A stretch of 64,000 nucleotides of DNA from an uncultured Solibacteraceae bacterium (GCA_964541075.1 CAZIPZ010000001.1:4425-68424), one strand, 5' to 3'; shown: positions 46,774 through 63,861, counted from the first letter of the stretch. The notes: generated from the letters alone by a model not told the origin. Made by a program: numbers and translations.

Positions 46774-46954
46774 ATTCCGTGTTCGCGAAACGAGATCAGA
46801 TACTGTCTCTTCTGCGTATTCCTAAAGAAGCATCTCTATCTTCCTCAGGTCATCACGATAGCCCTGTGCGCGGCTCTTGAACAGCGCTCGAATGGCGGCG
46901 GATGCGTTACCGACCTAATCCATTGGCGCGATCGTGCTAACATCCTTAGCTGTT

Positions 46955-47938
46955 ATGGTCATAGAAATACGTCTAAATGGGGAAACCCGGCAGATTCCAG
47001 AGCGGCTAAACATTGCACAATTGCTGGATCATTTTGACTTGCCTAAGGATCGCGTCGCTGTGGAGCGAAATCGGCGCATCATTCCCAAGCCTGACTGGGA
47101 TGCCGTTGCGCTCGGGCCCGGCGACGAAGTTGAGGTTGTTCACTTTGTTGGTGGGGGCTCCGGAGAGGATGATTCGTTCGTCATTGCGGGACGCACGTTC
47201 AAGTCACGGCTTCTCGTTGGAACGGGAAAGTATCCTAGCCATCAGGTGATGGCTGAAGCGCATCAGCGGTCCGGCACGGAAATGGTGACAGTGGCCGTGC
47301 GCAGAGTCGATCTCAGTGCGCCGAAGAATGAGTCATTGCTGGGATACATTGATCGCGAAAAGATCATGATCCTGCCCAATACCGCAGCCTGTTACACCAC
47401 AGACGAGGCAGTTCGAACGGCGAGATTGGGCCGGGAGGCGGGTCTTTCCAATTGGGTCAAGCTGGAAGTGATCGGCGATGAGAAGACATTGTTTCCGGAT
47501 ACGGCCTCGCTGATTGAAGCCACCAAGATTCTTGTCAAAGAAGGTTTCGTCGTCCTGCCCTATACGAACGACGACCTGATTGTTGCAAAGAGACTCATTG
47601 ATGCCGGCGCTTCGGCGATAATGCCGCTCGGCGCGCCCATTGGATCGGGCATGGGAATTCAGAATGTCCCTGCGATGCGAATTTTGCGGGAGATGATCAC
47701 TGAGGTGCCGCTCATCGTCGATGCAGGCGTCGGGACTGCTTCGGACGCAGCTATTGCGATGGAGCTAGGAGCCGATGGAGTTCTGATGAACACGGCTATA
47801 GCGGGCGCTAAAGATCCGGGCTCGATGGCCGAAGCCATGAAGCACGCGGTGCTTGCCGGCAGGTTGGCATATCGCGCCGGCCGGATTCAACGAAGGTTGT
47901 ACGCCACTGCTTCGTCTCCGCTGGAAGGCAAGGTCTAG
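46955..47938 (+). CDS. thiG: ThiS-ThiG fusion protein (sulfur-carrier domain fused to thiazole synthase)
   Basis: N-terminal ~66 aa ThiS-like domain ending in VVHFVGGG (GG terminus). Then ThiG TIM barrel ([11 protein letters not shown]...PIGSGMGI). ATG 46955 preferred. Confidence 0.85.
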
Positions 47939-49781: not shown

Positions 49782-51530
49782 ATGAAGTTAAGTATGGACG
49801 CTCGTGCGATGAAAGTCGTCGGATGCCTCGTTATCATGGGGCTGTTGTTGTTCGGCGCCTCGTTTAACGATCCATTCCACTTTGACGACGTTCTCATTTT
49901 GAATGACAGCAATGTGACCAACCCCAGTCAATGGCATCATTTTCTAAATCCTCTTCATTTGAGGCAGCTCACCTTCTTTACGTTCTATCTGAATTACACA
50001 CTGGGCGGTGATAGCCCCAGTCTCTACCATGTGGTGAACGTTGCTGTGCATATCGCGAATGCTGTACTGCTGTTTTGGCTGGTCTTACGCTTTCAACAAA
50101 TGAGTGCATCGAATCGGACTGATTTTCTGGGGCAGGACCAGCTGCAGAATTCGTTGGAAACGGAGAGTAGGGATCAATTGTGGCTTGCGGCGGCAGTCGC
50201 CGGTGTCTTTCTGATCCATCCGGTGCAGACAGAGCCGGTGCTCTACATTTATCAACGATCCGTACTCCTGGCGTGTTTTTTCTCATTGTCGGCTTTTCAC
50301 GCGCTGCTGGACCGACGTTGGTATCTGGCGTCAGCTCTGTTCTTTTTTGCTTTTGAAAGCAAGGAGTCGGCCGTGGCTGCACTGCTGGTGCTGGCGCTTA
50401 TTGCCGGAGGACGGCTCAGGAAGCCTTTTCTGGTTGCAGCGGCACTGTTGTCCGTGGCGGCTCTTGGTGTTCTGCTGTATCAGAACGAGACGACGGTCGG
50501 TCTGGGAGCTGTCAAACAAATCAGCTCAACGGATTACTTTTGGGCTCAAACGCGTGTGGCGTATACGTACATGCGTCTGTTGGTGTTCCCGTATCCCCAG
50601 TCATTGGAGTATGAATTTCCACAAAGATCTTCTCTTCTGCCTCTTTTGGGTCTCATTGCGATCGGAGGCGGGGGCTGGCTGCTGTCACGCCTACAGTCCT
50701 GGCGCATCCAAGGATTGGCTGTGCTTTCCTTTTTTTTGCTGCTCGCTCCCACATCGAGTGTCATACCCAGCGCCGACCCGGCGTTTGAGCATCGTCTTTA
50801 CCTGCCTATGCTTGCATTTTCGGTATTTATCGGGACACTTTTTGCCAAGCTTCCGCACCGCACAACGGTGAGTGTGCTTGTGGCCTGTGTCCTCATGCTT
50901 GTGACGGTTAACCGAGAGAACGTGTGGGCGTCGGACATAGCGCTCTGGGAGGATGCGAGCGTCCATGCGCCCGGAAAAGCGCGCGTGTGGACGAATCTGG
51001 GCGGCGCTTATTTGACCGTTGATGTCAGCAAGTCGCGTGAGGCATTCCTTCGAGCGTTGGAGATCGAGCCTAACTTCACTGAAGCTTTATACAACTTGGG
51101 CGCAATCGAGCAGGGAAGGTCAAACTGGAGCGCAGCGATTTCATTTTATGAGCGCACAATCATGACGAAAGCGGATTATTGGCCCGCATGGAATAACCTC
51201 GGAAACGTTTTGTTTGCTATCGACCAGCGCGATCGCGCATTGGACTGTTTTGAACGCACTTTGAGCTTGAATAGGGACTATTGGCCAGCGCAATATAACA
51301 TCGCTGTCGTTCATTACATGGCCAGCCGCTACGATAAAGTTATTCCGAGACTGAAGGTGGTTTTGGATTGGCGGCCGGACTTCCAGGATGCGCGGCGCCT
51401 GCTTGCAACATCTCTCACCCAGGCAGGATTTAGGAGCGCCGCGGAGGAACAGTGGAGGACCTTGGGTGAGATCGCCGCGGCAGAATCTCGGCAGACCCCC
51501 ACGATGATTTTGGCGCCTACTCGACCTTGA
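49782..51530 (+). CDS. TMTC-like membrane protein: N-terminal multi-TM GT-C/DUF1736-like domain plus C-terminal TPR repeats
   Basis: N-terminal ~400 aa are polytopic (FHFDDV...LNYTLGGDSPSLYHVVNVAVHIANAVLLFWLVL). C-terminal ~180 aa carry TPR repeats (AWTNLGGAYL, ALYNLGAIE, AWNNLGNVL, AQYNIAVVHY). Confidence 0.7.
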   Translation: MKLSMDARAMKVVGCLVIMGLLLFGASFNDPFHFDDVLILNDSNVTNPSQWHHFLNPLHLRQLTFFTFYLNYTLGGDSPSLYHVVNVAVHIANAVLLFWLVLRFQQMSASNRTDFLGQDQLQNSLETESRDQLWLAAAVAGVFLIHPVQTEPVLYIYQRSVLLACFFSLSAFHALLDRRWYLASALFFFAFESKESAVAALLVLALIAGGRLRKPFLVAAALLSVAALGVLLYQNETTVGLGAVKQISSTDYFWAQTRVAYTYMRLLVFPYPQSLEYEFPQRSSLLPLLGLIAIGGGGWLLSRLQSWRIQGLAVLSFFLLLAPTSSVIPSADPAFEHRLYLPMLAFSVFIGTLFAKLPHRTTVSVLVACVLMLVTVNRENVWASDIALWEDASVHAPGKARVWTNLGGAYLTVDVSKSREAFLRALEIEPNFTEALYNLGAIEQGRSNWSAAISFYERTIMTKADYWPAWNNLGNVLFAIDQRDRALDCFERTLSLNRDYWPAQYNIAVVHYMASRYDKVIPRLKVVLDWRPDFQDARRLLATSLTQAGFRSAAEEQWRTLGEIAAAESRQTPTMILAPTRP

Positions 51531-51569: not shown

Positions 51570-52427
51570 ATGAAGCGCACATTGTTGATATTGATCTGGG
51601 TTTTCTCCGCGTCCCTAGGCGCTAGCGCTCAAACCACATTCTATTTTCCGCAAATCGCCGACGGAACATTCACGGGCGGCTTTTGGAAAACCACGATCTT
51701 CATCACGAACCCAGCTGCGACGGGTGCTTCGCTGGCGAGTGGTTCAATCACATTCACAAAATCCGACGGGACTGTTTTCAATGTAGCATTCGTCGATAGC
51801 AACGGGGCGGCTGCGGGCAGTGGGAATGTGATCCCGTTCCAGCTTGCGGGAGGGCAAACAAGGAAGTACGTATCGACGGCGTCCACAGGACTGAACGTCG
51901 GTTTCGCGACAGTCAGTTCTTCCGCGGTTGTAACGGGAACAGCTGTTTTTTCTCAATTTGGTTCGGCAGGAAATCTGATCAGTGAGGCCGGTGTTCCGTC
52001 GGCCGGCGCAGTCACGCGCCAGGCAATATTTGTAGATACGCTCGGCGGATTCAGGACTGGCGTTGCTTATGCGAATCCAAACGCCGCTGGCGCCAACATC
52101 TCATTGCAACTGCTCAGCACCGAAGGTGTCGCGGTTGTGCCTTCAACCACGCGAACGCTTTTGGGGAACCAGCACACTGCGGCGTTCGTTCACGAGTTAT
52201 TTCCGAGCGCTCCTGCTTTCACCGGTACGATGCAAATTACCAGCAACGCTCCTTTAACCGCAGTAGCGCTGAGATTCGATCCATCATTTACGCTCTTCAC
52301 CACTTTGCCCCCAATAACCATAGCTTCGCTGGTTCTCCCAGCGATGCAATGGTTTGAGCATCGTCCCTGGTTAACGCCATTCACTACGTTGGCGAGACTC
52401 ATGGGGAGCCTGCAGTTCACCCTCTAA
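51570..52427 (+). CDS. Secreted protein of unknown function, paralog 1 (285 aa), internally duplicated
   Basis: Signal peptide. Clear paralogy to the next gene (FY.P....GTF.GGFW.TTIF.TNP...SG...FT.SDG ... GSGN.IPFQL..G.TRKYVS ... RQAIFVDT...F.TG.A.ANPN ... ALRFDP.FTLFTT.PP). Confidence 0.6.
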   Translation: MKRTLLILIWVFSASLGASAQTTFYFPQIADGTFTGGFWKTTIFITNPAATGASLASGSITFTKSDGTVFNVAFVDSNGAAAGSGNVIPFQLAGGQTRKYVSTASTGLNVGFATVSSSAVVTGTAVFSQFGSAGNLISEAGVPSAGAVTRQAIFVDTLGGFRTGVAYANPNAAGANISLQLLSTEGVAVVPSTTRTLLGNQHTAAFVHELFPSAPAFTGTMQITSNAPLTAVALRFDPSFTLFTTLPPITIASLVLPAMQWFEHRPWLTPFTTLARLMGSLQFTL

Positions 52428-52602: not shown

Positions 52603-53427
52603 ATGAACCGGCTTCTTTTTTCAATGTGCCTTATTCTTGCCGTCAGCGCGGTTGGTTCGGCGCAACAATTCACGTATTACTACCCGCATGTAACGGCTGG
52701 AACCTTTGTTGGAGGATTTTGGCAAACCACGATTTTCCTTACGAATCCAAATCCGCCCGGGACTCCGGCAGCCAGCGGAGCAGTTGTTTTCACGAGATCC
52801 GATGGCGGACCGTACGCCATTACCTTTCACGATGATGTGAATCGTCCTGCAGGAAGCGGCAACACGATACCTTTTCAGTTGGGGCCAGGTGAAACGCGCA
52901 AGTATGTGTCGGTCGCCAATGAGCCACTTTCCACGGGATTCGCAACGGTGACAGCGAATAGTTCAATTCTCGGAACTGCGATGTTCACACAATTCGATTC
53001 CTTTGGAAGAATGATCGGCGAGGCCGGGGTGCCTGCTGCAATTCCCCTGGGACGCCAAGCGATTTTTGTCGATACCACGAGCCAGTTCAAGACAGGTCTG
53101 GCCATTGCGAATCCTAACAATGCGCCGCTCCATATCACCTTTCAGCTCATGAATACGGTTGGGCAAATGATTCTCACAACAACGCGTGAACTGCCGCCAA
53201 ACCAGCATTTTTCAATTTTTGTTCATGAACTGTTTCCTGGCGCGCCGCCAATGGTTGGACGCCTGCAGTTTTACTGCACGAATCCGATGGTATCCGTCGC
53301 ATTGAGATTTGATCCGACCTTCACGCTATTTACCACTATGCCGCCCGTTGCAATTGCGGGATTGATTAAGATGGAAGCGCAGCCCGCGAATCTTGAGCGC
53401 CGCAGGATGGTGATCGATAGGGCCTAA
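52603..53427 (+). CDS. Secreted protein of unknown function, paralog 2 (274 aa)
   Basis: GGAGGA RBS and signal peptide. About 45-50% identity by eye to the upstream paralog. Confidence 0.6.
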   Translation: MNRLLFSMCLILAVSAVGSAQQFTYYYPHVTAGTFVGGFWQTTIFLTNPNPPGTPAASGAVVFTRSDGGPYAITFHDDVNRPAGSGNTIPFQLGPGETRKYVSVANEPLSTGFATVTANSSILGTAMFTQFDSFGRMIGEAGVPAAIPLGRQAIFVDTTSQFKTGLAIANPNNAPLHITFQLMNTVGQMILTTTRELPPNQHFSIFVHELFPGAPPMVGRLQFYCTNPMVSVALRFDPTFTLFTTMPPVAIAGLIKMEAQPANLERRRMVIDRA

Positions 53428-53598: not shown

Positions 53599-54921
53599 TC
53601 AATACGTCGAGAGGTAACGCTCGATTTCCCACGGATGCACTTGTGCGATGTAGGTTCCCCACTCGGTGCGCTTGGCTTCGATAAAGTGGGAGAAGATCTG
53701 TTCGCCGAGCGCTTCTCGTACAACGTCATCCTTCTTGAGTCCTTCGTACGCCTCACGAAGATCGCCTGGCAGTCCATCAATCCGATAATGACGCCGCTCC
53801 CGGTGGCTCATCTTTTGGACGTTCTTTGTAATCGACGGTCCGGGATCAATCTTTTCTCTGATGCCAGCCAGACCTGCAGCCAATATGGCAGCTAGTGCAA
53901 GATAAGGATTGCATGAGGGATCAGGCATGCGTAACTCGACCCTTGTGTTTGCGCCGCGGCCTGCAGGCACTCGCACAAGAGGTTCACGATTCTGCTCGGA
54001 CCAAACCACATTGGTCGGTGCATCGTAGCCGGGAACGAGACGCTTATAGGAGTTCACAAGAGGATTCGTGATCACACAGAAGCCGCGGGCGTGGCGGAGC
54101 ATCCCGCCAATGAAAAATAGCGCGGTTCGACTGAGTTGGTAATCTCCCGCCGGATCGTAGAAGGCGTTCCGTCCATCTTTGAAGAGCGATAGATGGGTAT
54201 GCATACCTGACCCCGCCCGGCCGTACAGAGGCTTCGGCATGAAGGTGGCGTGAAGTCCATGTCTCATCGCAATGTAGCGGGCGATGAAGCGGAATGTTCC
54301 GACATTGTCGGCGGTCGCGAGAGCATCGTTGTGCTTCAGATCGATTTCATGCTGCCCGGGCGCAAGTTCGTGGTGCGCCGCCTCGACTTCGATCCCCATG
54401 CCTTCCATTACATTGATGATGTCTCGTCTCGCCTCCTCTCCCTTGTCCACAGGCGTCATATCAAAGTAGCTGCCATAGTCGTGGGTCTCGGTGGTCGCGT
54501 CGCCACTGGGTCTCTTCAAAAAAAGAAAAAACTCGATTTCTGGACCGACTTGAAGTGTGTATCCCATGGATCGAGCTTTATCGATCATGCGTTGGAGCGT
54601 CAGGCGCGGGCAGCCTTCAAACGGCGTGTTATCAGGGTTGAAGACATCACAAATGAGGCGGCCGATGACTTCCCCGCTGCGGCTCCAAGGAAGGATGCGG
54701 AAGGTTTCTGGGTCCGGTTTCAGTAGTTTGTCAGTCTCTTCGAGTCGAGTGAAGCCCTCAATCGAGGACCCGTCGAAGATGACCTGCCCTCTGAGCGCCT
54801 TGTCAAACTGGTCGGTTGGCACTTCAACGTTTTTTATCATGCCTAGAATGTCCGTGAACTGGAGTCTTAAGAACTTGACTCGCTCGCTCCGCGCAAGTTC
54901 GAGCACTTGTTCGATGGTCAT
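53599..54921 (-). CDS. glnA: Glutamine synthetase, 440-aa form (GSI-alpha-like, no adenylylation tyrosine motif)
   Basis: GS beta-grasp plus catalytic domains (GPEIEFFLF, GSGMHTHLSLF, NPYLALAAIL). The C-terminus lacks an NLYDLPPEE-type motif. Divergent from glnD. Confidence 0.85.
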   Translation of the reverse strand: MTIEQVLELARSERVKFLRLQFTDILGMIKNVEVPTDQFDKALRGQVIFDGSSIEGFTRLEETDKLLKPDPETFRILPWSRSGEVIGRLICDVFNPDNTPFEGCPRLTLQRMIDKARSMGYTLQVGPEIEFFLFLKRPSGDATTETHDYGSYFDMTPVDKGEEARRDIINVMEGMGIEVEAAHHELAPGQHEIDLKHNDALATADNVGTFRFIARYIAMRHGLHATFMPKPLYGRAGSGMHTHLSLFKDGRNAFYDPAGDYQLSRTALFFIGGMLRHARGFCVITNPLVNSYKRLVPGYDAPTNVVWSEQNREPLVRVPAGRGANTRVELRMPDPSCNPYLALAAILAAGLAGIREKIDPGPSITKNVQKMSHRERRHYRIDGLPGDLREAYEGLKKDDVVREALGEQIFSHFIEAKRTEWGTYIAQVHPWEIERYLSTY

Positions 54922-54999
54922 AGTGAGGGTTCACTCCACGGGCGGATGTGGCCAGCCAACGGGAAGGCGAAAAGTAAATGGCATGATAACATACGACCC

Positions 55000-57435
55000 A
55001 TGACCACTCGTGAGGACTTGAAGCGTTACCTGGACGCGAGGCGAGCGAGGTTTCTCGAAGCTCCCATTCAAGAGCCTGTCGAACGTCACATAAGCGACAA
55101 AATCGACGAAATTCTCCGCAGCATCTGGGGCGACCGGACGCCTCCTGTGCCCTTTGCGCTATTGGCTATAGGCGGTTACGGGCGAGGCACAATGCATCCG
55201 CATTCCGATGTCGACCTGCTCTTCTTCTTTGAAGATGTGATCGAGGAAGATGTGGTCAAAACGTTACTTCACCCTCTGTGGGATTTGCCTCTCAAGGTCG
55301 GGCACCAGGTTCGCCATGCCGCCGATTTCGCGGCCTTCGATGAGGGGCACATGGAATCCTACACCGCATTCCTCGATTCTCGATTTCTGCTGGGCGATCC
55401 TAAAATCGGTGATGAATTCTCCAGGGACATTCTTCCGAAGTTCATTCGGCGGAGCCGTGACCGGTTCCTGCGCGGATTGCTTCGAATGAAGGCGAATCGA
55501 TACAACGAGTTTGGCCAAACGATCTTTCAGCTTGAGCCCGATCTAAAAGAAGCTCCCGGCGGCTTGCGTGACGCTCACTGGTCGGACTGGGCTCGAAAAG
55601 GGATCGGAGAGAATCTCGATGATCCTTTCTCTTACGAAATCGTGCAGTTTCATCACTGCCTCCGCAATTTTCTCCACTTTCAATCCAATCGCAACTTCAA
55701 TGTGCTTTCGTATGAGTTCCAGGAACAGATCGCCGAGAAGCTCGGTTATAAGGATTCCGTTCACGGCGAGTCCGCCGAGACCTTGATGCGAGATTACTTT
55801 CTGAAGGCCAATGAGGTTGCGAGGATGGCTACGCATTGGGAAGAGGCTATTACCGGCAGTCCTAATCGCATTAGTATTCCGTCGGATTTCTCGGAACCGT
55901 TGGACATGATCAAAGCTTTCGCCGAGGCGCATCGAAAGAAGGCCAAACTGGATTTGCCGACGCTTAACACTATTCGGCGCCGGCTCGAATCCACAGATGG
56001 CGCCCTTTCGTATAACCCACGAGCCGGTCAGGCCATCCTCGAAATGATGAAGGACCGGCAGGGCATATACGAAACACTGCTGGCGATGCACGAAGTGGGG
56101 TTGCTCGGAAAGGTGTTTCCGGAGTTTGAGGAAATCCGGTGCCGGGTGATCCGCGATTTCTTCCATAAATACACGGTGGATGAGCACTCGCTCATCGCCA
56201 TACGAAACATTGAAGAATTGCCTCCCGGACACAGATTCTGCAACATCCTGAGTGAACTGGAGCACCCTGAACTGCTTTTTCTTGCGCTACTTCTTCACGA
56301 CATCGGTAAGGCTCATCGCCATGACGAACGCAACCACGTCCATCCGAGCACTGAAGGTGTGAAGCTGATTCTGGAGAAGCTTGGGCTGCCAGAGGAGCAA
56401 AGAGAAAAGGTCGTGGCGGCGGTCAAGAATCACTTGGAAATGTCGAAGATTATCCTTCGCCGGGATTTCAGTGATGAGCATGTCGTGCATCAGTTTGCAG
56501 ACATTGTCGGAAATGTGGATGACTTACGAATGCTGTGTCTTTTGACCTATGCCGACATGAAAGCGGTGAATAACGAAGTCTGTACTCCGTGGAGGCAGGA
56601 TCTGTTATGGCAGTTATATATCGAAACGTACAACCGCCTGATGTTAGGGCTTGGCGACGAGCAGTATAATCAGCAGCCAGACTTTGAAATCGAGATTGAG
56701 GCCATCGCCGCTCTCCTTCCAAGGGGGACTGCCGCCCAGGATATCCGTAATTTCTTGGACGGTTTTCCGCGACAATACCTGAGGCACACACCCAAGTCCC
56801 AAATTGCTGAGCACTTTCTCCTCTCGCGCAAGCTGGCTACTCAACCTGTGGTCGTGAATCTGAATTACAGTGGCACGATCTACGAATTGCTGGTCATGAC
56901 TGAAGACCGTCCCTTTCTCTTTTCAAAGATCACGGGCGTGCTTTCATATTTTGGAATGAATATCGTTCGGGGTCAGGCGTTTTCCAATCGGCGAGGGGCG
57001 ATTTTCGACCTGATTGCCTTTGAGGATACGGATCGCTACTTCAAGAAGAATCCGTCGGAAGTCGAGCGGTTTTCAAAGGTGCTTGTTGACGTAATCGCTG
57101 GGAAGGTGCAGTTGAACGATCTGCTGCGAGGAAAACTCCAAAGCGTCCTCTTCAAGCCGAGGAAGGGCGCCTCTACAGCCACTATCCATTTTGACGACGA
57201 GTTTTCGCGGCGTGGTTCGATCCTCGAAATCAACGCCTCTGACGAATTCGGCCTGCTCTATCGGATCGCAACCGTGATTTCATCTCATGGCTGCAACATC
57301 GAAACAGCTTTAATTACTACTGAAGGCCACCGCGCCATCGATGTCTTTTATTTGACGCGCGAGGGACACAGATTGACGCCCGAACTTGAGGAACAGGTCA
57401 AGCGTGACCTCGGGGCAGTACTACTCCAGAACTGA
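55000..57435 (+). CDS. glnD: [Protein-PII] uridylyltransferase/uridylyl-removing enzyme GlnD
   Basis: NTase motif AIGGYGRGTMHPHSDVDLLFF. HD domain (HDIGKAH...H). Two C-terminal ACT domains. ATG 55000 chosen over the track's 54907. Confidence 0.9.
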   Translation: MTTREDLKRYLDARRARFLEAPIQEPVERHISDKIDEILRSIWGDRTPPVPFALLAIGGYGRGTMHPHSDVDLLFFFEDVIEEDVVKTLLHPLWDLPLKVGHQVRHAADFAAFDEGHMESYTAFLDSRFLLGDPKIGDEFSRDILPKFIRRSRDRFLRGLLRMKANRYNEFGQTIFQLEPDLKEAPGGLRDAHWSDWARKGIGENLDDPFSYEIVQFHHCLRNFLHFQSNRNFNVLSYEFQEQIAEKLGYKDSVHGESAETLMRDYFLKANEVARMATHWEEAITGSPNRISIPSDFSEPLDMIKAFAEAHRKKAKLDLPTLNTIRRRLESTDGALSYNPRAGQAILEMMKDRQGIYETLLAMHEVGLLGKVFPEFEEIRCRVIRDFFHKYTVDEHSLIAIRNIEELPPGHRFCNILSELEHPELLFLALLLHDIGKAHRHDERNHVHPSTEGVKLILEKLGLPEEQREKVVAAVKNHLEMSKIILRRDFSDEHVVHQFADIVGNVDDLRMLCLLTYADMKAVNNEVCTPWRQDLLWQLYIETYNRLMLGLGDEQYNQQPDFEIEIEAIAALLPRGTAAQDIRNFLDGFPRQYLRHTPKSQIAEHFLLSRKLATQPVVVNLNYSGTIYELLVMTEDRPFLFSKITGVLSYFGMNIVRGQAFSNRRGAIFDLIAFEDTDRYFKKNPSEVERFSKVLVDVIAGKVQLNDLLRGKLQSVLFKPRKGASTATIHFDDEFSRRGSILEINASDEFGLLYRIATVISSHGCNIETALITTEGHRAIDVFYLTREGHRLTPELEEQVKRDLGAVLLQN

Positions 57436-57574
57436 ATTTGGCGCCCATCGCCTTGGTTTCATGTCCATTTGAACCCAGCAGCGCATGAGCAATCCCAAGG
57501 AAAAGGATGCTGAGTACAGCTGCTGCCGTTATCGCCACCATGATCACGCCAATCCGGATAGCAAAGTCCCTCAT
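57398..57574 (-). CDS. Putative small membrane protein (58 aa)
   Basis: ATG with AAGGTGG 7 nt upstream. One TM helix. The 3' end overlaps glnD by 38 bp in convergent orientation. Confidence 0.25.
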   Translation of the reverse strand: MRDFAIRIGVIMVAITAAAVLSILFLGIAHALLGSNGHETKAMGAKFSSGVVLPRGHA

Positions 57575-57761
57575 AGATCCACCTTCCGTTTTGTACAATG
57601 CACGCTGACATCCAAATTAGACGGTCAGCGATCAATATGTAGGCGAGAAAAAGGAAGAAATTCTGATCGAAGGATCGGGTGTCACGAGAAGCAAAGCCTT
57701 CGTCCTGGGTTTGGGGTTCGCTGGTGGACTTTCGCTACCTCTCTAGCTCGCGCGAGTGACG

Positions 57762-58004
57762 CTATTCCTCGGCATCGTCGGGTGAATGATCTTCACCCTT
57801 TTTCGTCGCGGAAAGCGGCTGATTGCCTATTCTCTCCTCGACAAAGTAGCCGGGGTGGTACGCACCTTTCTTCAAGTTCAATTCCCGACAGTATCGTTTA
57901 GCCTCCTCCATCGTCTTGAACTGCGCAGGAACAGGCATGCGACCGAAGCCGCTAATTTCCTTAGGTTGTTTCGAAAGCACCCAAAATGATCTCTTGTTAG
58001 CCAC
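57762..58004 (-). CDS. Hypothetical small protein (80 aa) downstream of the glnE AT-N gene
   Basis: ORF with balanced composition, 47 bp after the glnE-N stop. GTG start, or an internal ATG. Confidence 0.3.
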   Translation of the reverse strand: MANKRSFWVLSKQPKEISGFGRMPVPAQFKTMEEAKRYCRELNLKKGAYHPGYFVEERIGNQPLSATKKGEDHSPDDAEE

Positions 58005-58051
58005 GCACCCTCACCTTCACGAGCATTAATCGTACGAAGTGTAACATCCCT

Positions 58052-59647
58052 TCAGGTTTGGGGGTAAAAACGTCCAGTATTGTGAAGTCCGATCACCTCT
58101 TCAAAGATGCGGTGGACTTCGTTCGTGTAATGTTGATAGTCCCTCAAAAAAAGGTCTACTCCGAGGTCCTCTGCTTTGTCGGTATAGCCCAGCCTGCGAG
58201 CGCAGATCATCAAGTCTTCACGGTTTCGAGGAAGCAAGTGCGTTTGCGCATCGTCGACCATCTGAAGCTTGTTTTCGACATCTCTCAGAAAAACGTATGC
58301 TTGGGTCAAAGTGGCGCATTCTTCAGCGGAAATGAGCGCCCGCTCACACAATTCCGACAGGGCTTTCAGCGTGTTGCGCTGCGACAGTTGCGGGTATCGG
58401 CCGCCGTGGCAGACTTGAAGGGATTGGGTGACAAGTTCGACCTCTCGAATTCCACCCCTGCCCAATTTAACGTTCCTGGCGCCCTGCCGGCGAATGGTCA
58501 TCTGACGATCGACCTTCCGTTTCATTGCACGGATATCATCGAGCGCCTTGAGATCAAATGGCGGATCGTAGACGAAAGGGCGAGCCATGGCGAGGAAGCG
58601 CTTCGCAAGTCCACAGTTTCCAGCGACCGGCCACGCTTTCAGCAAGGCGAGGCGTTCCCATGTTCCCAGCCGCGACGCGTAGTATCGTTCAAAGGATTCG
58701 ATCGTGTCCGCGATATTGCCGGCCGCCCCCTCCGGGCGCAATCGTAAATCGACGCGGTAAACATAGCCTTCCTCGGTGAAATCGCTTAAACCAATCGTGA
58801 TTTTCTGGCAGAGCCGGTGAAAATAATCCGGCGCCGACATTGTTTCGTGCGACGTGTCACTGGGGTTATCCGTACTGGGTTCCACCTGGTTGGCGGCATA
58901 CAGATAAATCAAATCGACGTCTGAGCTGAAATTCAGTTCGCCGCCGCCAAGCTTGCCCATAGCCAGTATTGAGAAGCCGCGAAACGATTTTTTCGAAATC
59001 TGGTGCTCCTTCTTAAGTGAGGTGGAGCAGATCCAATAAGTTGCCGAAATCAATACCTCGGCCAGTGTGGACAACGCCGACAACGTTTCTTCCACCGAGC
59101 ACATACGTAACAGATCCCGCACGCCGATCTGCAGCATCTCTCGACGTTTCAGCACTCGCAGGTAGTTAAGTTGCTGTTTCTCATCCGCAAGAACCTTCAG
59201 CGTGCGCACGAGTTCGCGCTGAATGTCCCGTTTGGTGCGGCCCTTGTGCAAAATTTGAGGATCGGTGACCCAGTAGAAGTGGTGGGGATCTCGTATCAAT
59301 ATTTCTGCCATGTAGGGACTTCCGCCCAAGGTTCGTGTGAGGATTTCAAGAGTCGGCGGAGAATCTTTGAAGTAGGAAAAAAGGCGCGTTTTATTTAGGG
59401 CGGCCGTTGCGAATCTCTCGAAGTACGTAAGCGCTTGATCAGGATCCGCCGATTGCGAAACGCATACCAATAGTTCCTCTATGACGTCCGCCAGTAGTTG
59501 ACGTTCTGACGGATCAGTCGCCGTCGCCTGCAGATTCCTGTCCGCCTTCACAGGATCCTTCAGCCCGTATGGACGGAGAAGTTCGGCCACATGCTTCGGT
59601 TCCAGACGCGGGGCAAGCAGCAGATCCTTGATGTTCGGTGGCGACAT
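58052..59647 (-). CDS. glnE: Glutamine synthetase adenylyltransferase, N-terminal (AT-N, adenylyl-removing) half encoded as a separate gene
   Basis: NTase motif [22 protein letters not shown] is near-identical to E. coli GlnE AT-N ([22 protein letters not shown]). 531 aa with no second NTase domain. Confidence 0.85.
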   Translation of the reverse strand: [531 protein letters not shown]

Positions 59648-59770
59648 GCTGCTTGTAAGATAAATCGGGTTGCGGAATTAATCGACCCTCTCAATATCTT
59701 CAGGTCCCACCTCGTCCTGTCAGAACTGCTGTTGACGGGAGGAGGCAGCACCATCTGGTACGATTGAGGT

Positions 59771-61999
59771 GTGCTTTCTACGGATCTGAAACACGCGATA
59801 GAATCCCTTTGTCCTGACATCGACCATGCGATGATTCAAGACTTCTTTGCCCGGATGGGTGAAGATTACTTCGCGACGTTCTCGCCTGAAGAAATCGCCA
59901 GTCATATCCGAATGTCTGCACTGCTCGATCGCAAACATACGCTGCAAGTCCGTGTGACGCAACGTTCATCCGGTCCTGGCGAGTTCGAAATTGTGATCGT
60001 CGGTTTCGACTATCTTGCCGAGTTTTCGATCTTTTGCGGGCTGCTGTCGGCCTTTGGCCTCGACATTCGCGCGGGCAACATCTACTCGTTTGGAAGCCGT
60101 GGAGCGGTAGAAGAAAAGCCTTTGCCAACGGAGGGACGGCGCCCACCACTAGCGAGAGTAGCGCGTTTGATGCCGCGGAAAGTCGTGGATGTCTTTAACG
60201 TGGCAATCAAGCCAGGAGTGAGCTTTGACGAGGCGAAACAAGGCGAATTTGAGCAAGAGCTCCTGCATCATGCTCGGCTCCTCGCAGCAGGCTCGCTCGA
60301 TCAAGCGCGGGAACGACTTCATCGTTTTCTCACCGAACGCATCGAAACAATGAACGAACGCCTCAGCGGTTTGCTTTCGGCTGTTGAAATTGATTTCGAC
60401 AATGAGCGAACCCCGGAGTGGACTGTTATGAGCATTCGCGCGGCGGACTCGTTCGCGTTTCTCTATGCCATCTCCAACGCGCTGGCCATGAGGGGCGTTT
60501 ACATTCACAAAGTCAAAATTGGCAGCATCGGTGAACGTGTAGAGGACGAATTTTTTATTGCCGACCGTTCTGGACGGAAAATCGTCGACCCGCGCGAACA
60601 GGACAGACTGCATACGGCTGTGCGCGCCATCAAGGAATTTACGGGCTATTTGCCTGAAGCTCCCGACCCGGCCAAAGCGATGCGCCACTTCGACCAGTTG
60701 TTGGACAAGCTTGCTGAAGAAGAATTTCCGGAGCGCACTCTATCGTTCCTCGCCGAAAGGGAGGGCATGAATATCCTCGCGCACCTCTTAGGATCGAGTG
60801 ACTACCTGTGGGACGACTTTCTGGGTGTTCGCTTCGCAGAACTCATTCCCGTACTCACCGATATCGCCAATACAGGATTGCCAGCGAGAGACTCGCTTCA
60901 GCGCAACCTAGTCAAAACCCTCCGGGCTGCCAGTACGTTCGAAGAGAAAAAGAAAGTGCTGAACCGGTTCAAGGATGAACAGGTGTTCGTGATCGATGTC
61001 CAACGTGTACTCGAGAAAGCGAACCTGATGGAGTTTTCTCAGGCTTTAACGGATCTTGCTGAGGTGGTCGTTGATGAGGCGGTGAGGGTTTCTCATGACC
61101 GTCTTGCTGTGCAACGGGGCCGACCTTTGCTTGAAGACCGGCGGGCATTGCCATTCGCGGTCTGTGCTTTAGGCAAATTCGGCGGGTGTGAAATGGGCTA
61201 TGCCTCGGATCTCGAGCTGTTATTTGTTCATGAAGGGGCCGGAAACGGGGAATTTTTCGAGTCTGTTGCGCTTCAGGTCAATGATTTCGTCGAAACCCGC
61301 CCCAAAGGGATCTTTCACATTGACCTTCGCCTTCGACCTTACGGCGAGAAAGGCTCCGCTTCCACATCCTTCGATCAGTTTATTCGTTATTACAGCCAGG
61401 GCGGTCCGGCAGCGCCTTTCGAGCGGCAAGCGCTCATCAAACTGAGATGGATTGCCGGCAATGAAGACCTGGGCCGCCGGATCCAAGCCCATCGCGATAC
61501 TTTTACATACAGCGGCGCGCCCTGGGATTGGGAAAACGCGCTGCACTTGCGTCGCAGACAGATGAAGGAGTTGGTGAAGCAAGGAACAACAAACGTGAAA
61601 TACAGCGCCGGTGGAATTGTCGAGATCGAGTACGCGGTGCAATACCTACAAATTCTTCATGGCAAAGATAACCCGGAGCTTCGAGTCACCGGAACGTTGG
61701 AGGCGCTGAATCAGCTGTATCGCCTGGAACTAGTCACCCTTGCGGAATATGAATTATGGAATACCGCATACCTTTTCTTCCGGAATCTAATTGATGCGCT
61801 TCGGATCGTACGCGGTGACGCGACAGATCTCGTCCTGCCGGAAGAGACTTCGGAAGAGTTCAAGGCGCTGGGACGGCGGCTGGGTTATCGCGGAAGAGAC
61901 CGTAAGAAGGAAGCGGCGTTGCTGGCGTCGGATGTTCAGTCATGGATGGAGAAAGTTCACGATCACTTTATAGATCGATTTGAAACATTGCACCCGTAG
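59771..61999 (+). CDS. glnE: Glutamine synthetase adenylyltransferase C-terminal (AT-C, adenylylating) domain fused to an N-terminal ACT-like domain, separate gene
   Basis: ALGKFGGCEMGYASDLELLFVHEG matches GlnE AT-C ([23 protein letters not shown]). N-terminal ~130 aa contain an ACT-like beta-alpha-beta-beta-alpha-beta stretch (EFEIVIVGFDYLAEFSIFCGLLSAFGLDIRAGNIYSF). Confidence 0.8.
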   Translation: MLSTDLKHAIESLCPDIDHAMIQDFFARMGEDYFATFSPEEIASHIRMSALLDRKHTLQVRVTQRSSGPGEFEIVIVGFDYLAEFSIFCGLLSAFGLDIRAGNIYSFGSRGAVEEKPLPTEGRRPPLARVARLMPRKVVDVFNVAIKPGVSFDEAKQGEFEQELLHHARLLAAGSLDQARERLHRFLTERIETMNERLSGLLSAVEIDFDNERTPEWTVMSIRAADSFAFLYAISNALAMRGVYIHKVKIGSIGERVEDEFFIADRSGRKIVDPREQDRLHTAVRAIKEFTGYLPEAPDPAKAMRHFDQLLDKLAEEEFPERTLSFLAEREGMNILAHLLGSSDYLWDDFLGVRFAELIPVLTDIANTGLPARDSLQRNLVKTLRAASTFEEKKKVLNRFKDEQVFVIDVQRVLEKANLMEFSQALTDLAEVVVDEAVRVSHDRLAVQRGRPLLEDRRALPFAVCALGKFGGCEMGYASDLELLFVHEGAGNGEFFESVALQVNDFVETRPKGIFHIDLRLRPYGEKGSASTSFDQFIRYYSQGGPAAPFERQALIKLRWIAGNEDLGRRIQAHRDTFTYSGAPWDWENALHLRRRQMKELVKQGTTNVKYSAGGIVEIEYAVQYLQILHGKDNPELRVTGTLEALNQLYRLELVTLAEYELWNTAYLFFRNLIDALRIVRGDATDLVLPEETSEEFKALGRRLGYRGRDRKKEAALLASDVQSWMEKVHDHFIDRFETLHP

Positions 62000-62060
62000 A
62001 GCAAGACAATAAGAAGGGGCGGCCGGTAAGCGGCCGCCCCTTTCTTGAACTGACCGAAGA

Positions 62061-63470
62061 CTAGAGACTGTAATACATGTCGAACTCGACGGGATGGGTT
62101 GTCATCCGGAAACGCGTGACTTCTTCCATCTTAAGGTCGATATACGCGTCGATCATATCGTCGCTGAATACGCCGCCCTTGGTCAGGAATGCTCGATCCT
62201 TGTCCAAAGCGGAGAGAGCTTCATCAAGCGATGCACAGGGATGTGGAACGTCCTTCGCCTCTTCCGGAGCGAGGTCGTAGAGGTTTTTGTCGATCGGATC
62301 ACCAGGATGGATCTTGTTCTGCACTCCGTCCAAGCCCGCCATCATCATTGCCGCAAATCCAAGGTATGGATTGCAGCTCGGATCGGGGAAGCGCACTTCA
62401 ATCCGGCGCGCCTTCGCGCTGGTGACCAAAGGAACCCGCACCGCCGCTGAACGGTTCCGAGCAGAATAGGCAAGGTTGATCGGGGCCTCGAAGCCGGGAA
62501 CCAGCCGTTTGTACGAGTTCGTTCCGGGGTTGGTAAGCGCGTTCAGTGACTTCGCGTGTTTGATGATTCCGCCGATGTAGTAAATTGCGAATTCGGAGAG
62601 ACCCGCATAGCCTTCGCCTGCGAAAAGATTCTGTTCACCTTTCCATATCGATTGATGGACGTGCATTCCCGAACCGTTGTCGCCGACGATGGGTTTAGGC
62701 ATGAAAGTGGCAGTTTTTCCATATCTGGCGGCAACGTTGTGCACGGCGTACTTTAATCTCAAGAGCCAGTCCGCGCGCTGGACCAACGGCGCAAACTTTG
62801 TTCCGATTTCATTCTGACCAGCCGTCGCGACTTCATGGTGATGCACTTCGACGACGACCCCCATCTGTTCCAGGGCCAGACAGATTGCGGACCTAATATT
62901 CTGCAACGAGTCCACTGGCGGCACCGGGAAATAGCCGCCCTTCACTGCCGGCCGGTGCCCCTTGTTGCCTTTTTCGAACCTCTCACCAGTCGACCATGCC
63001 GCTTCTTCGGAAAAGATCTTGTAAGAGGACCCGGACATGTCCACAGACCATTCAACCGCATCGAAAATGAAAAACTCCGGTTCCGGCCCGAAGTATGCAG
63101 TGTCACCCAAACCAGTGGATTTCAGATAGGCGTCTGCGCGCTTCGCTATCGAACGAGGATCCCGATCGTAGCCTTTCATGTCGGACGGCTCAATTACGTC
63201 GCACGTGATTGCAAGCGTAGTCTGATCCAGAAATGGATCGATAAAGGAAGAAGCAGGATCAGGAAGAAGAAGCATGTCCGATGCTTGAATGCCCTTCCAT
63301 CCGGCGATGGAGGAGCCGTCAAAGAAGTGGCCCGATTCGAATTTTTCGGGACCGAAGGATTTGACCGGAACGCTGACATGCTGTTCCTTGCCCCGCGTAT
63401 CGGTGAAGCGGAGATCTACAAACTTGACATCTTTATCTTTAATCGTCTGGAAGATTTCTTTAGGGGACAT
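62061..63470 (-). CDS. glnA: Glutamine synthetase type I-beta (469 aa) with adenylylation site
   Basis: [39 protein letters not shown], and the adenylylation tyrosine loop [10 protein letters not shown]. Confidence 0.95.
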
Positions 63471-63525
63471 AAATTTTCCTCACGTTTGAATGGCTGTTAT
63501 AGAAGGAAGCGACGTGGCCGCCTTT

Positions 63526-63861
63526 CTAACTTTGGATATCGCGTTCGCCTGTGCGAATGTTGTAGCCCTGTTCGACCGGCAGAACGAACACGCGTCCATC
63601 GCCGATCTCGCCAGTCCGGGCAGTCTGAATAATGGTCTTGATCGTATCGTCGATCATTTCGTCTGGAAGTACGAGATCGATCATGATCTTGGGCAGCAGC
63701 GTGACGCTGTACTCAGTTCCACGATAGATCGCCTTGTGGCCTTTTTGCCGGCCGTGACCTCGAACTTCGGTTACGGTCATTCCCGAAATATTCAGACGAG
63801 TCAGGGCGTCCTTCACCTCTTCAAGTTTGTTCGGACGGATAATCGCTTTGATGAGTTTCAT
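63526..63861 (-). CDS. glnB: Nitrogen regulatory protein PII
   Basis: MKLIKAIIRPNKLEEVKDAL...T-loop GRQKGHKAIYRGTEY (uridylylation Tyr51). Directly upstream of glnA. Confidence 0.95.
   Translation of the reverse strand: MKLIKAIIRPNKLEEVKDALTRLNISGMTVTEVRGHGRQKGHKAIYRGTEYSVTLLPKIMIDLVLPDEMIDDTIKTIIQTARTGEIGDGRVFVLPVEQGYNIRTGERDIQS

Follow-up and report, generated by a model that had tools for sequence, protein, structure and literature searches.

A region of about 10 kb from an uncultured Solibacteraceae bacterium probably encodes a complete module for the post-translational control of glutamine synthetase (GS), in which the function of GlnE is unbundled into two enzymes. It spans positions 53599-63861 of the DNA analysed here, a 64-kb stretch (GCA_964541075.1, CAZIPZ010000001.1:4425-68424) that we call the window. 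The region holds the full parts list of the cascade: GlnD, a PII protein with Tyr51, a GS of the GSI-beta type with Tyr398, and two GlnE-family proteins of 531 and 742 residues, which carry the class residues of adenylyl-removing (AR) and adenylyltransferase (AT) enzymes, respectively. The 742-residue protein, hereafter the putative adenylyltransferase ACT-AT, also bears a pair of ACT domains. Its type of nucleotidyltransferase (NT) domain is paired one to one with AR-type domains throughout the family, and the gene neighbourhood is conserved in relatives. Adenylylation of GS by GlnE is a textbook bicyclic covalent-modification cascade, and its components here are likewise textbook; what is new is a GlnE that is split by nature, bears an ACT sensor of the GlnD type and has D-x-E as a catalytic variant.

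A GlnD-type sensor joined to a GlnE-type nucleotidyltransferase

Residues 1-296 of ACT-AT are a homologue of the C-terminal ACT-ACT region of GlnD. Of these, residues 9-285 match the GlnD model TIGR01693 at positions 607-846 (E 1e-21) and align with residues 568-798 of the GlnD encoded in the window itself, and homologues of ACT-AT give faint matches to Pfam GlnD_5th (PF27446). An AlphaFold model of residues 1-345, built on 31 homologues (pLDDT 79.9, pTM 0.77), shows a helical lead-in followed by ACT-like units at 59-193 and 206-296, a tandem ACT fold homologous to the GlnD C terminus; the first unit contains a disordered insert of about 25 residues (109-134).

The remainder of ACT-AT is a GlnE-type NT domain, with Pfam scores of 127 bits for GlnE and 55 bits for PF08335. 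Its motif GKFGGCEMG476YASD480LE482L places Gly476 at the position of E. coli G697. The catalytic motif reads G468-X11-D480-L-E482, in which Glu replaces the second Asp of G-X11-D-X-D; Glu482 may still bind metal. Against PRK11072, the NCBIfam model of GlnE, ACT-AT scores 179.7 bits (cutoff 487). The closest relatives, 56-65% identical, come from metagenome-assembled genomes (MAGs) of Blastocatellia and other Acidobacteriota and from soil metagenomes. By such relatives the genome would be placed among the Blastocatellia (Acidobacteriota). One database entry, P0001 (722 aa), starts at an ATG 20 codons 3′ of GTG 59771, leaving out window positions 59771-59830. Because homologues conserve these first 20 residues (AIESLCP...), we take GTG 59771 as the start and regard the P0001 start as probably too short.

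The 531-residue protein is clearly of the AR type, that of the N-terminal half (AT-N) of E. coli GlnE, as judged by sequence. It scores 203 bits for Pfam GlnE (PF03710) and 103 bits for PF08335, and it is closer to the N-terminal than to the C-terminal half (AT-C) of E. coli GlnE (204 against 156 bits), as it is to structure 1v4a than to 3k7d (197 against 164 bits). The motif GKLGGGELN239FSSD243VD245L is nearly the same as that of AT-N. It contains G231-X11-D243-V-D245, a full instance of G-X11-D-X-D, the catalytic motif of GlnE/GS-ATase (PMC12894286), and it puts Asn239 at the position of E. coli N169. In a tree of NT domains the protein falls into the same clade as AT-N (clade II, below), and it matches at 11 of 12 discriminating columns. 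Its score against PRK11072 is 367.5 bits, again below the cutoff of 487.

The preliminary description of this region, made from the sequence, had listed both halves of glnE. Two separate GlnE-family genes are indeed present, but ACT-AT is more than a half: it is a chimera of a GlnD sensor and a GlnE-type NT domain that belongs to a clade apart from AT-C, and for this reason we do not regard it as a simple fission product of a canonical glnE. A plain fission of an ordinary glnE into N- and C-terminal parts, bringing no new regulatory input, would explain why both genes match GlnE and GlnD_UR_UTase and why the two proteins show an AR-like character and the AT-class Gly, respectively, and engineered E. 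coli GlnE halves are active singly. We nevertheless consider it very improbable, as it leaves unexplained the roughly 300 extra N-terminal residues that fold as two GlnD-homologous ACT domains, the separate clade with its invariant D-x-E, and the divergent rather than tandem order of the genes. Moreover, other phyla have the ACT-NT unit in one chain with an AR domain, before or after it, as would be expected of a modular family more than of a local fission.

Two clades of NT domain paired one to one

An exhaustive HMMER search with ACT-AT returned 8910 relatives, and NT domains were located with a home-made profile in the best 150 representatives. Sixty of these 150 have the order ACT-ACT-NT-NT (about 1250-1290 aa) and 39 the order NT-ACT-ACT-NT (about 1200-1250 aa); a further 37 are ACT-ACT-NT proteins of about 730-780 aa, and three carry two NT domains without the ACT pair (about 950-1010 aa). 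Each of the other entries has a single NT domain; most of them are fragments or proteins of lesser length.

A neighbour-joining tree of 91 NT domains resolves two clades. Clade I comprises all NT domains that directly follow an ACT pair, that of the window's ACT-AT included. Clade II comprises E. coli AT-N, the window's 531-residue protein and, from each fused protein, the remaining NT domain. It follows from the tree that every fused protein combines one clade I with one clade II domain, and that the two may come in either order: ACT-ACT-NT(I)-NT(II) or NT(II)-ACT-ACT-NT(I), with NT(I) alone in the short ACT-ACT-NT proteins. Clade I is thus paired one to one with an AR-type domain, both in the 99 fused representatives and in divergent gene pairs of two phyla.

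The form of the pair varies with the group. The two proteins are encoded by divergent genes in Blastocatellia and Nitrospira, where the Nitrospira proteins (759 aa) have the order ACT-ACT-I alone, and they are fused in Anaerolineae, Spirochaeta and Fibrobacteria. Examples of the fused form are Spirochaeta thermophila WP_014624478.1 (1239 aa) and a protein from a Fibrobacteria MAG, both ACT-ACT-I-II, and Anaerolineae MBE7469082.1 (1247 aa), II-ACT-ACT-I. On these sequence comparisons, the ACT-linked NT domain is a distinct clade that always occurs with exactly one AR-type domain, adjacent or fused, in at least five phyla.

Fused forms exceed the NCBI GlnE equivalog cutoff, and automated annotation already calls some of them GlnE or, as with MBE7469082.1, 'ACT domain-containing protein'. 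Because the split proteins miss that cutoff, GS adenylylation may be under-called in Acidobacteriota and Nitrospira, which are abundant soil and nitrifying phyla. WP_014624478.1 and MBE7469082.1 share with the window the modules of AR-type NT, ACT-ACT and clade I NT; they differ in being one chain (ACT-ACT-AT-AR or AR-ACT-ACT-AT) that is unclustered with glnD or glnA in those genomes. A full-text literature search found no paper on ACT-bearing or naturally split GlnE, or on GlnE in Acidobacteria or Nitrospira, and a 2015 survey of GS-ATase domains leaves ACT unmentioned.

Probable assignment of clade I to the adenylyltransferase class

The only class-specific residues described for the two GlnE activities are Asn169 in AR, where it is essential for activity, and Gly697 in AT (Khater and Mohanty, PMC4454073). 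Asn fills this position in every one of 32 clade II domains, and Gly in every one of 43 clade I domains. A second stretch, R-V-D in AR domains, is E-[VI]-D in E. coli AT-C and in most of clade I; in the window's ACT-AT it reads H-I-D. P0261, a protein of canonical length and domain order, has a C-terminal domain that falls in clade I. From the published class residue and the strict pairing with AR, we conclude that clade I is AT-class by sequence, yet a separate lineage.

Several results weigh against this assignment. In the neighbour-joining tree AT-C takes an intermediate place between the two clades. A clade I profile gives it 235 bits and a clade II profile 271, and it has only 1 of 12 clade-discriminating residues in common with clade I. 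ACT-AT itself is tied between the two E. coli halves, in BLAST as in PDB comparisons, and D-x-E is invariant in all 43 clade I domains, so that the canonical G-X11-D-X-D is not strictly kept. Assignment by overall similarity was therefore given up: the halves tied, and neither profiles nor discriminating columns linked the domain to AT-C. Since these tests gave no link, the AT assignment is drawn exclusively from the N169/G697 class residue and the architecture.

For the same reason, the most serious of the three alternatives weighed here is that ACT-AT modifies another target (PII, the GSI-alpha-type GS or some other enzyme) and that GS is adenylylated by a canonical GlnE encoded elsewhere, or not at all; our inventory of GlnE-family genes for the source organism covers the 64-kb window. 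The distinctness of clade I from canonical AT-C, D-x-E in place of D-x-D, the GlnD-like N terminus and a score far under the GlnE equivalog cutoff for ACT-AT alone (180 against 487 bits) would all suit another substrate, and close relatives (loci L008 and L009, below) have a fused two-domain GlnE without an ACT pair. We judge this alternative improbable. An AR enzyme requires an AT partner, and clade I is without exception paired one to one with an AR-type domain; the AT-class Gly is present in clade I, a tyrosine-bearing GSI-beta is the immediate neighbour, and P0261 combines canonical length and order with a clade I C-terminal domain.

The fused proteins of L008 and L009 (L008:4571-7387, minus strand; L009:4358-6985, minus strand) themselves carry Asn, the AR-class residue, in the first NT domain and again in the second (GKFGERELNYRSDLDV). 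Judged by the published N169/G697 residues, they would lack an AT-class domain. With Asn rather than Gly in the second domain they are not called canonical here, which weakens an interpretation of L008 and L009 as cases of displacement of a 'canonical' GlnE.

A proposed division of labour

Our preferred reading, the unbundled GlnE, can be set out as a sequence of predicted steps. GlnD (NTase-HD-ACT-ACT) would read glutamine and uridylylate or de-uridylylate PII at Tyr51, as expected from its family. ACT-AT would AMPylate Tyr398 of GSI-beta and so inactivate it, with both ligand and activity predicted. Because it carries its own GlnD-type ACT-ACT module, it would most likely be switched on directly by glutamine or another amino-acid signal and be less reliant on PII alone. 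The AR-type enzyme would remove AMP and reactivate GSI-beta, probably under the control of PII-UMP. Close relatives have the PII gene immediately 3′ of the AR gene, on the same strand; in the window PII does not adjoin the AR gene, a further point against the proposed scheme. The 440-residue GS (GS440), lacking the tyrosine loop, would escape the switch and may provide a second, differently regulated route of ammonium assimilation.

The proposed division between AT and AR agrees with properties of the E. coli halves that Jaggi et al. are said to have described in 1997, namely that isolated AT-C is glutamine-activated and PII-independent and that AT-N is dependent on PII-UMP. Futile-cycle avoidance and the action of glutamine on GlnE have been studied mainly through engineered E. 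coli truncations. By analogy with GlnD, the ACT pair of ACT-AT probably senses glutamine: GlnD needs its ACT domains for the glutamine response, and an N-terminal GlnD-like ACT region makes the Chlamydomonas alpha-amylase AMA2 glutamine-activated (PMC11190351). In Azospirillum and Azorhizobium, AT-only alleles of GlnE bring about the adenylylation of GS in vivo (PMC9249168).

More tentatively, and as a possibility that we rate below the unbundling itself, ACT-AT may be a PII-independent, glutamine-gated ACT-ACT-NTase adenylyltransferase, with the AR enzyme alone reading PII-UMP. The ACT pair would then represent the glutamine site never located in classical GlnE, and the design would be widespread in Acidobacteriota, Nitrospirota, Chloroflexota, Spirochaetota and Fibrobacterota.

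In either case the region offers a natural dissection of GlnE, with an AR-only enzyme and an AT-type enzyme bearing an ACT sensor beside their substrate, their regulators and a second GS beyond the reach of adenylylation. Should glutamine be the ligand of the ACT pair, the module would provide a clean, separable model for nitrogen signal integration, and natural 'unidirectional' AT and AR parts of the kind engineered for ammonia-excreting diazotrophs.

Comparison with characterized systems places the module close to E. coli in its parts and apart from it in their assembly. In common with E. coli GlnE (1V4A, 3K7D), PF03710 and PF08335 occur twice, once as AR type and once as AT type, the class residues are equivalent (N169 to N239 in AR, G697 to G476 in AT), and the aspartate and RLRP motifs are present in both. 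The GSI-beta substrate tyrosine lies in NLYDL(A/P)PEE, with GlnD and PII Tyr51 upstream in the cascade. E. coli GlnE, however, is one protein of 946 aa, whereas the window has two polypeptides from divergent genes, neither of which singly reaches the NCBIfam GlnE cutoff; the window's AT domain is preceded by a GlnD-type ACT-ACT module, has D-x-E and belongs to a clade apart from AT-C. Engineered GlnE truncations (AT-N, AT-C, uAT) likewise yield separate AR-only and AT-only proteins, but these are laboratory constructs; the split in the window is natural, cross-phylum and under purifying selection, with a sensor module of its own on the AT. The tandem ACT of ACT-AT is homologous to ACT1-ACT2 of GlnD and has counterparts in plant ACR proteins and AMA2. 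It differs from all of these in being joined to a GlnE-type NTase and in the disordered insert of ACT1.

Two glutamine synthetases, PII and GlnD

The GSI-beta protein carries its adenylylation site at Tyr398, in KNLY398DLAPEE (codon 62277-62279). Both hallmarks of its class are present: the tyrosine loop, and an insertion relative to GS440. GS440 has neither; in alignment with GSI-beta proteins it shows KNVQKMSHRE at the position of the loop. As a type I GS without insertion or adenylylation tyrosine it belongs with GSI-alpha. Homologues of GS440 that are 65-89% identical occur in MAGs of Blastocatellia and other Acidobacteriota and in soil metagenomes, and of the closest, which are acidobacterial and 78-89% identical, two are again divergent from glnD.

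The PII protein has the P-II fold and the T-loop residue Tyr51, in YRGTEY51 (codon 63709-63711). It falls short of the NCBIfam GlnB/GlnK equivalog cutoffs (135 against 202 bits). Its gene lies 55 bp upstream of that for GSI-beta on the same strand, an arrangement reminiscent of the glnB-glnA operons that are classical in alpha-proteobacteria. The window's pair differs from these in being embedded in a larger block that also holds a second GS, glnD and the two GlnE-type genes; in the window's closest relatives PII is instead downstream of the AR gene.

The mechanical call of glnD, an open reading frame (ORF) at 54907-57435 beginning with TTG 54907, would overlap the GS440 gene. Orthologues from L005, L006 and L009 (61-68% identical) begin at residue 32 of this long ORF, and we therefore place the real start at ATG 55000. 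The resulting protein has NTase, HD and two C-terminal ACT domains, with the motifs GGYGRG at 58, SDVDL at 69 and HDIGK at 433 (811-aa numbering); against TIGR01693 it scores 485 bits, slightly under the cutoff of 519.4. In one relative, glnD is called as two genes (L008:7390-9874, minus strand) encoding 564 aa (NT-HD) and 208 aa (ACT-ACT), which could reflect a frameshift, an assembly error or a real split of the ACT sensor from the catalytic part.

Layout of the cluster

Gene calls were made from an ORF listing of the window followed by Pfam and NCBIfam scans. All the nitrogen-control genes named in the preliminary description were recovered at the positions it had given and with the expected families. 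They include an adenylylatable GSI-beta (NLYDLAPEE) with glnB upstream and a 440-residue GS without that motif, divergent from glnD. The claim that the complete uridylylation and adenylylation cascade sits within 10 kb also holds: GlnD, PII, two GlnE-family proteins and a tyrosine-bearing GSI-beta. We infer that six functionally linked genes among seven successive gene slots are far beyond chance. Base composition is uniform over the region (GC 0.51-0.56).

Table 1. Genes, domains and intergenic elements of the nitrogen-control cluster (window coordinates)
Feature	Position	Strand	Length	Matches and remarks
GS440, GSI-alpha-type glutamine synthetase	53599-54921	-	440 aa	Gln-synt_N + Gln-synt_C; TIGR00653 534 bits (cutoff 429)
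GS440/glnD divergent spacer	54922-54999		78 bp	contains ATGATAACATA at 54983-54993
glnD, PII uridylyltransferase/uridylyl-removing enzyme	55000-57435	+	811 aa	NTP_transf_2, GlnD_UR_UTase, HD, ACT
orf80, small protein	57762-58004	-	80 aa	between glnD and the 531-aa gene
AR-type GlnE-family protein	58052-59647	-	531 aa	GlnE + GlnD_UR_UTase
AR/ACT-AT divergent spacer	59648-59770		123 bp	
ACT-AT, GlnE-family protein	59771-61999	+	742 aa	ACT-like + GlnE + GlnD_UR_UTase
ACT-AT sensor module	59771-60658	+	residues 1-296	helical lead-in + two ACT domains
ACT-AT GlnE-type nucleotidyltransferase domain	60851-61975	+	residues 361-735	putative AT
G+C-rich hairpin, likely bidirectional terminator	62014-62042			terminator scan
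GS469, GSI-beta glutamine synthetase	62061-63470	-	469 aa	TIGR00653 658 bits; PRK09469 807 bits
glnB-type PII	63526-63861	-	111 aa	PF00543 (P-II) 108 bits

Conservation of the neighbourhood

Comparison with relatives showed variants of the block on independent contigs. The compact layout had been described as uncommon, which stands in relation to model proteobacteria; within Blastocatellia, however, versions of the block recur (L005, L006 and the P0065 locus), and the arrangement is not unique to the window. The AR gene and ACT-AT are divergent neighbours, as in the window, in L001, L002, L003, L006, L007 and the P0065 locus (Blastocatellia), and again in the complete Nitrospira genome L010. 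In L005, also from Blastocatellia, they stand about 2.9 kb apart with two unrelated genes between them. A tyrosine-bearing GS adjoins the pair in L001, L003, L005, L006 and L007.

The window reads TPR, hypothetical, hypothetical, GS440(-), glnD(+), orf80(-), AR(-), ACT-AT(+), GSI-beta(-), PII(-). L006 has TPR, hypothetical, glnD, cytochrome c, PII, AR divergent from ACT-AT, then GSI-beta (88% identical), and L005 and the P0065 locus are variants of this order, in which AR is followed immediately, on its own strand, by PII. Orthologues of the window's GSI-beta that are 88-90% identical adjoin ACT-AT in L005 and L006, and PII orthologues that are 81-89% identical occur in L005, L006 and L008 at other places in the block. 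L001, L003 and L007 have a different GSI-beta (54% identical, KDLYELPPEE) beside the pair, with no glnD or PII within 10 kb. L008 and L009, which were found through GS440 homologues, have TPR, hypothetical and GS440 divergent from glnD, followed by the fused two-domain GlnE without ACT (938 or 875 aa); L008 additionally has PII and GSI-beta. The window thus joins the GS440-glnD divergent pair of one lineage with the split pair of another, with PII moved to a place before glnA. The nitrogen block is a lineage trait with shuffling, and no one-off.

Other regulatory or modifying genes stand near the pair in some relatives. Genes for Fic-domain proteins, another AMPylase family, occur directly after ACT-AT in L010 (12379-13506, plus strand) and between GSI-beta and AR in the Blastocatellia contig L007 (6296-6745, minus strand). 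In L010 (5318-8160, minus strand) two regulatory genes come after the AR gene on its strand, one for a histidine kinase and one for a sigma-54-dependent response regulator, a pair resembling NtrB/NtrC, and in L007 a GAF and sigma-54 activator gene lies upstream of GSI-beta. The window has no regulator like either of these.

Candidate regulatory sites

The preliminary description had suggested coordinated regulation of the cluster. We scanned for the sigma-54 consensus TGGCAC-N5-TTGCA and the NtrC consensus TGCACC-N5-GGTGCA, both of which are E. coli sequences that may not be those of the host. Coordinated transcription gained no backing from these searches, though they do not exclude it. The cluster's promoter-bearing intergenic regions gave no site. 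A sigma-54 match of at least 9/11 with the GG/GC dinucleotides was absent from the cluster, with five such sites elsewhere in the window. Relaxed scans for both consensuses found none in promoter-bearing spacers and only two 7/11 matches, both in the glnD-AR spacer and at background density. Phylogenetic footprinting of the AR/ACT-AT spacer, which measures 22-190 bp in relatives, found only the translation-start blocks conserved. The lack of a common regulatory site in the sigma-54, NtrC and footprinting results is a point against the proposed module. Because the E. coli consensus has low power in an acidobacterial genome, the negative scans carry little weight. A sigma-70 scan found fewer sites than in shuffled sequence and was uninformative.

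These observations bear on whether the genes are clustered only by inherited synteny, as separate units with different promoters and no transcriptional co-regulation. Transcription within the 10 kb runs in at least five directions or units, and the convergent ACT-AT and GSI-beta genes are separated by a strong terminator hairpin (12-bp stem, 10 GC pairs). With no sigma-54/NtrC consensus and no common conserved intergenic motif, a purely positional relationship would fit, as it would with the variability of the block, in which PII moves, GS440 is present or absent, unrelated genes intervene in L005 and L006, and orf80 is inserted in the window. On the other side, the divergent AR/ACT-AT pair is kept in two phyla, the block from glnD to glnA survives 35-45% protein divergence, and the consensus scan has the low power just described. 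On balance we think synteny without co-regulation unlikely, if slightly less so than a different target of ACT-AT.

One short element may merit attention. The 11-mer ATGATAACATA lies 6 bp upstream of the glnD ATG; on the other strand, as TATGTTATCAT, it occurs immediately upstream of glnD in L008, and the spacer of L009 holds the related GGTATCATG. It could be a promoter or operator element.

Neighbouring genes and other features of the window

The small gene orf80, absent from the preliminary description, occupies the place where relatives have PII. It encodes a highly conserved, real small protein with 88 homologues at up to 87% identity, one of them from Candidatus Binatia; a Pfam search gave no match, and one JGI entry labels a homologue 'viroplasmin and RNaseH domain-containing protein'. 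The protein is unrelated to nitrogen control, and its homologues have thioredoxin, aldo-keto reductase and LytTR two-component genes as neighbours. A role as PII remnant or as a new partner was ruled out, given the lack of similarity to PII and the occurrence of homologues in unrelated contexts.

In the 616-bp spacer after glnD, a 66-aa ORF (57398-57598, minus strand) overlaps the end of glnD. Its hydrophobic core (IRIGVIMVAITAAAVLSILFLGIAHALL) resembles a transmembrane segment, and the ORF may encode a small membrane peptide or be spurious.

Upstream of the cluster, tandem paralogues at 51570-52427 and 52603-53427 (plus strand; 285 and 274 aa) match no Pfam family, and their N termini look like signal peptides. 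They are preceded by a TPR/PMT-like membrane protein gene at 49782-51530. A unit of TPR and hypothetical gene is also found upstream of the nitrogen block in L005, L006, L008, L009 and the P0065 locus, and because of this recurrence we count it as part of the conserved neighbourhood.

Among the annotated proteins of the window outside the cluster, none is a nitrogen-regulation protein, and an Rfam scan of the whole window matched no RNA family, glutamine riboswitches included. The genes elsewhere in the window encode an ABC transporter, NadE, BatA/VWA proteins, SHMT, nuo subunits, ATP synthase a, ThiS-ThiG and glycosyltransferases. A single ORF of 334 aa (46934-47938, plus strand) encodes a fusion of ThiS (residues 12-75) and ThiG (residues 84-329).

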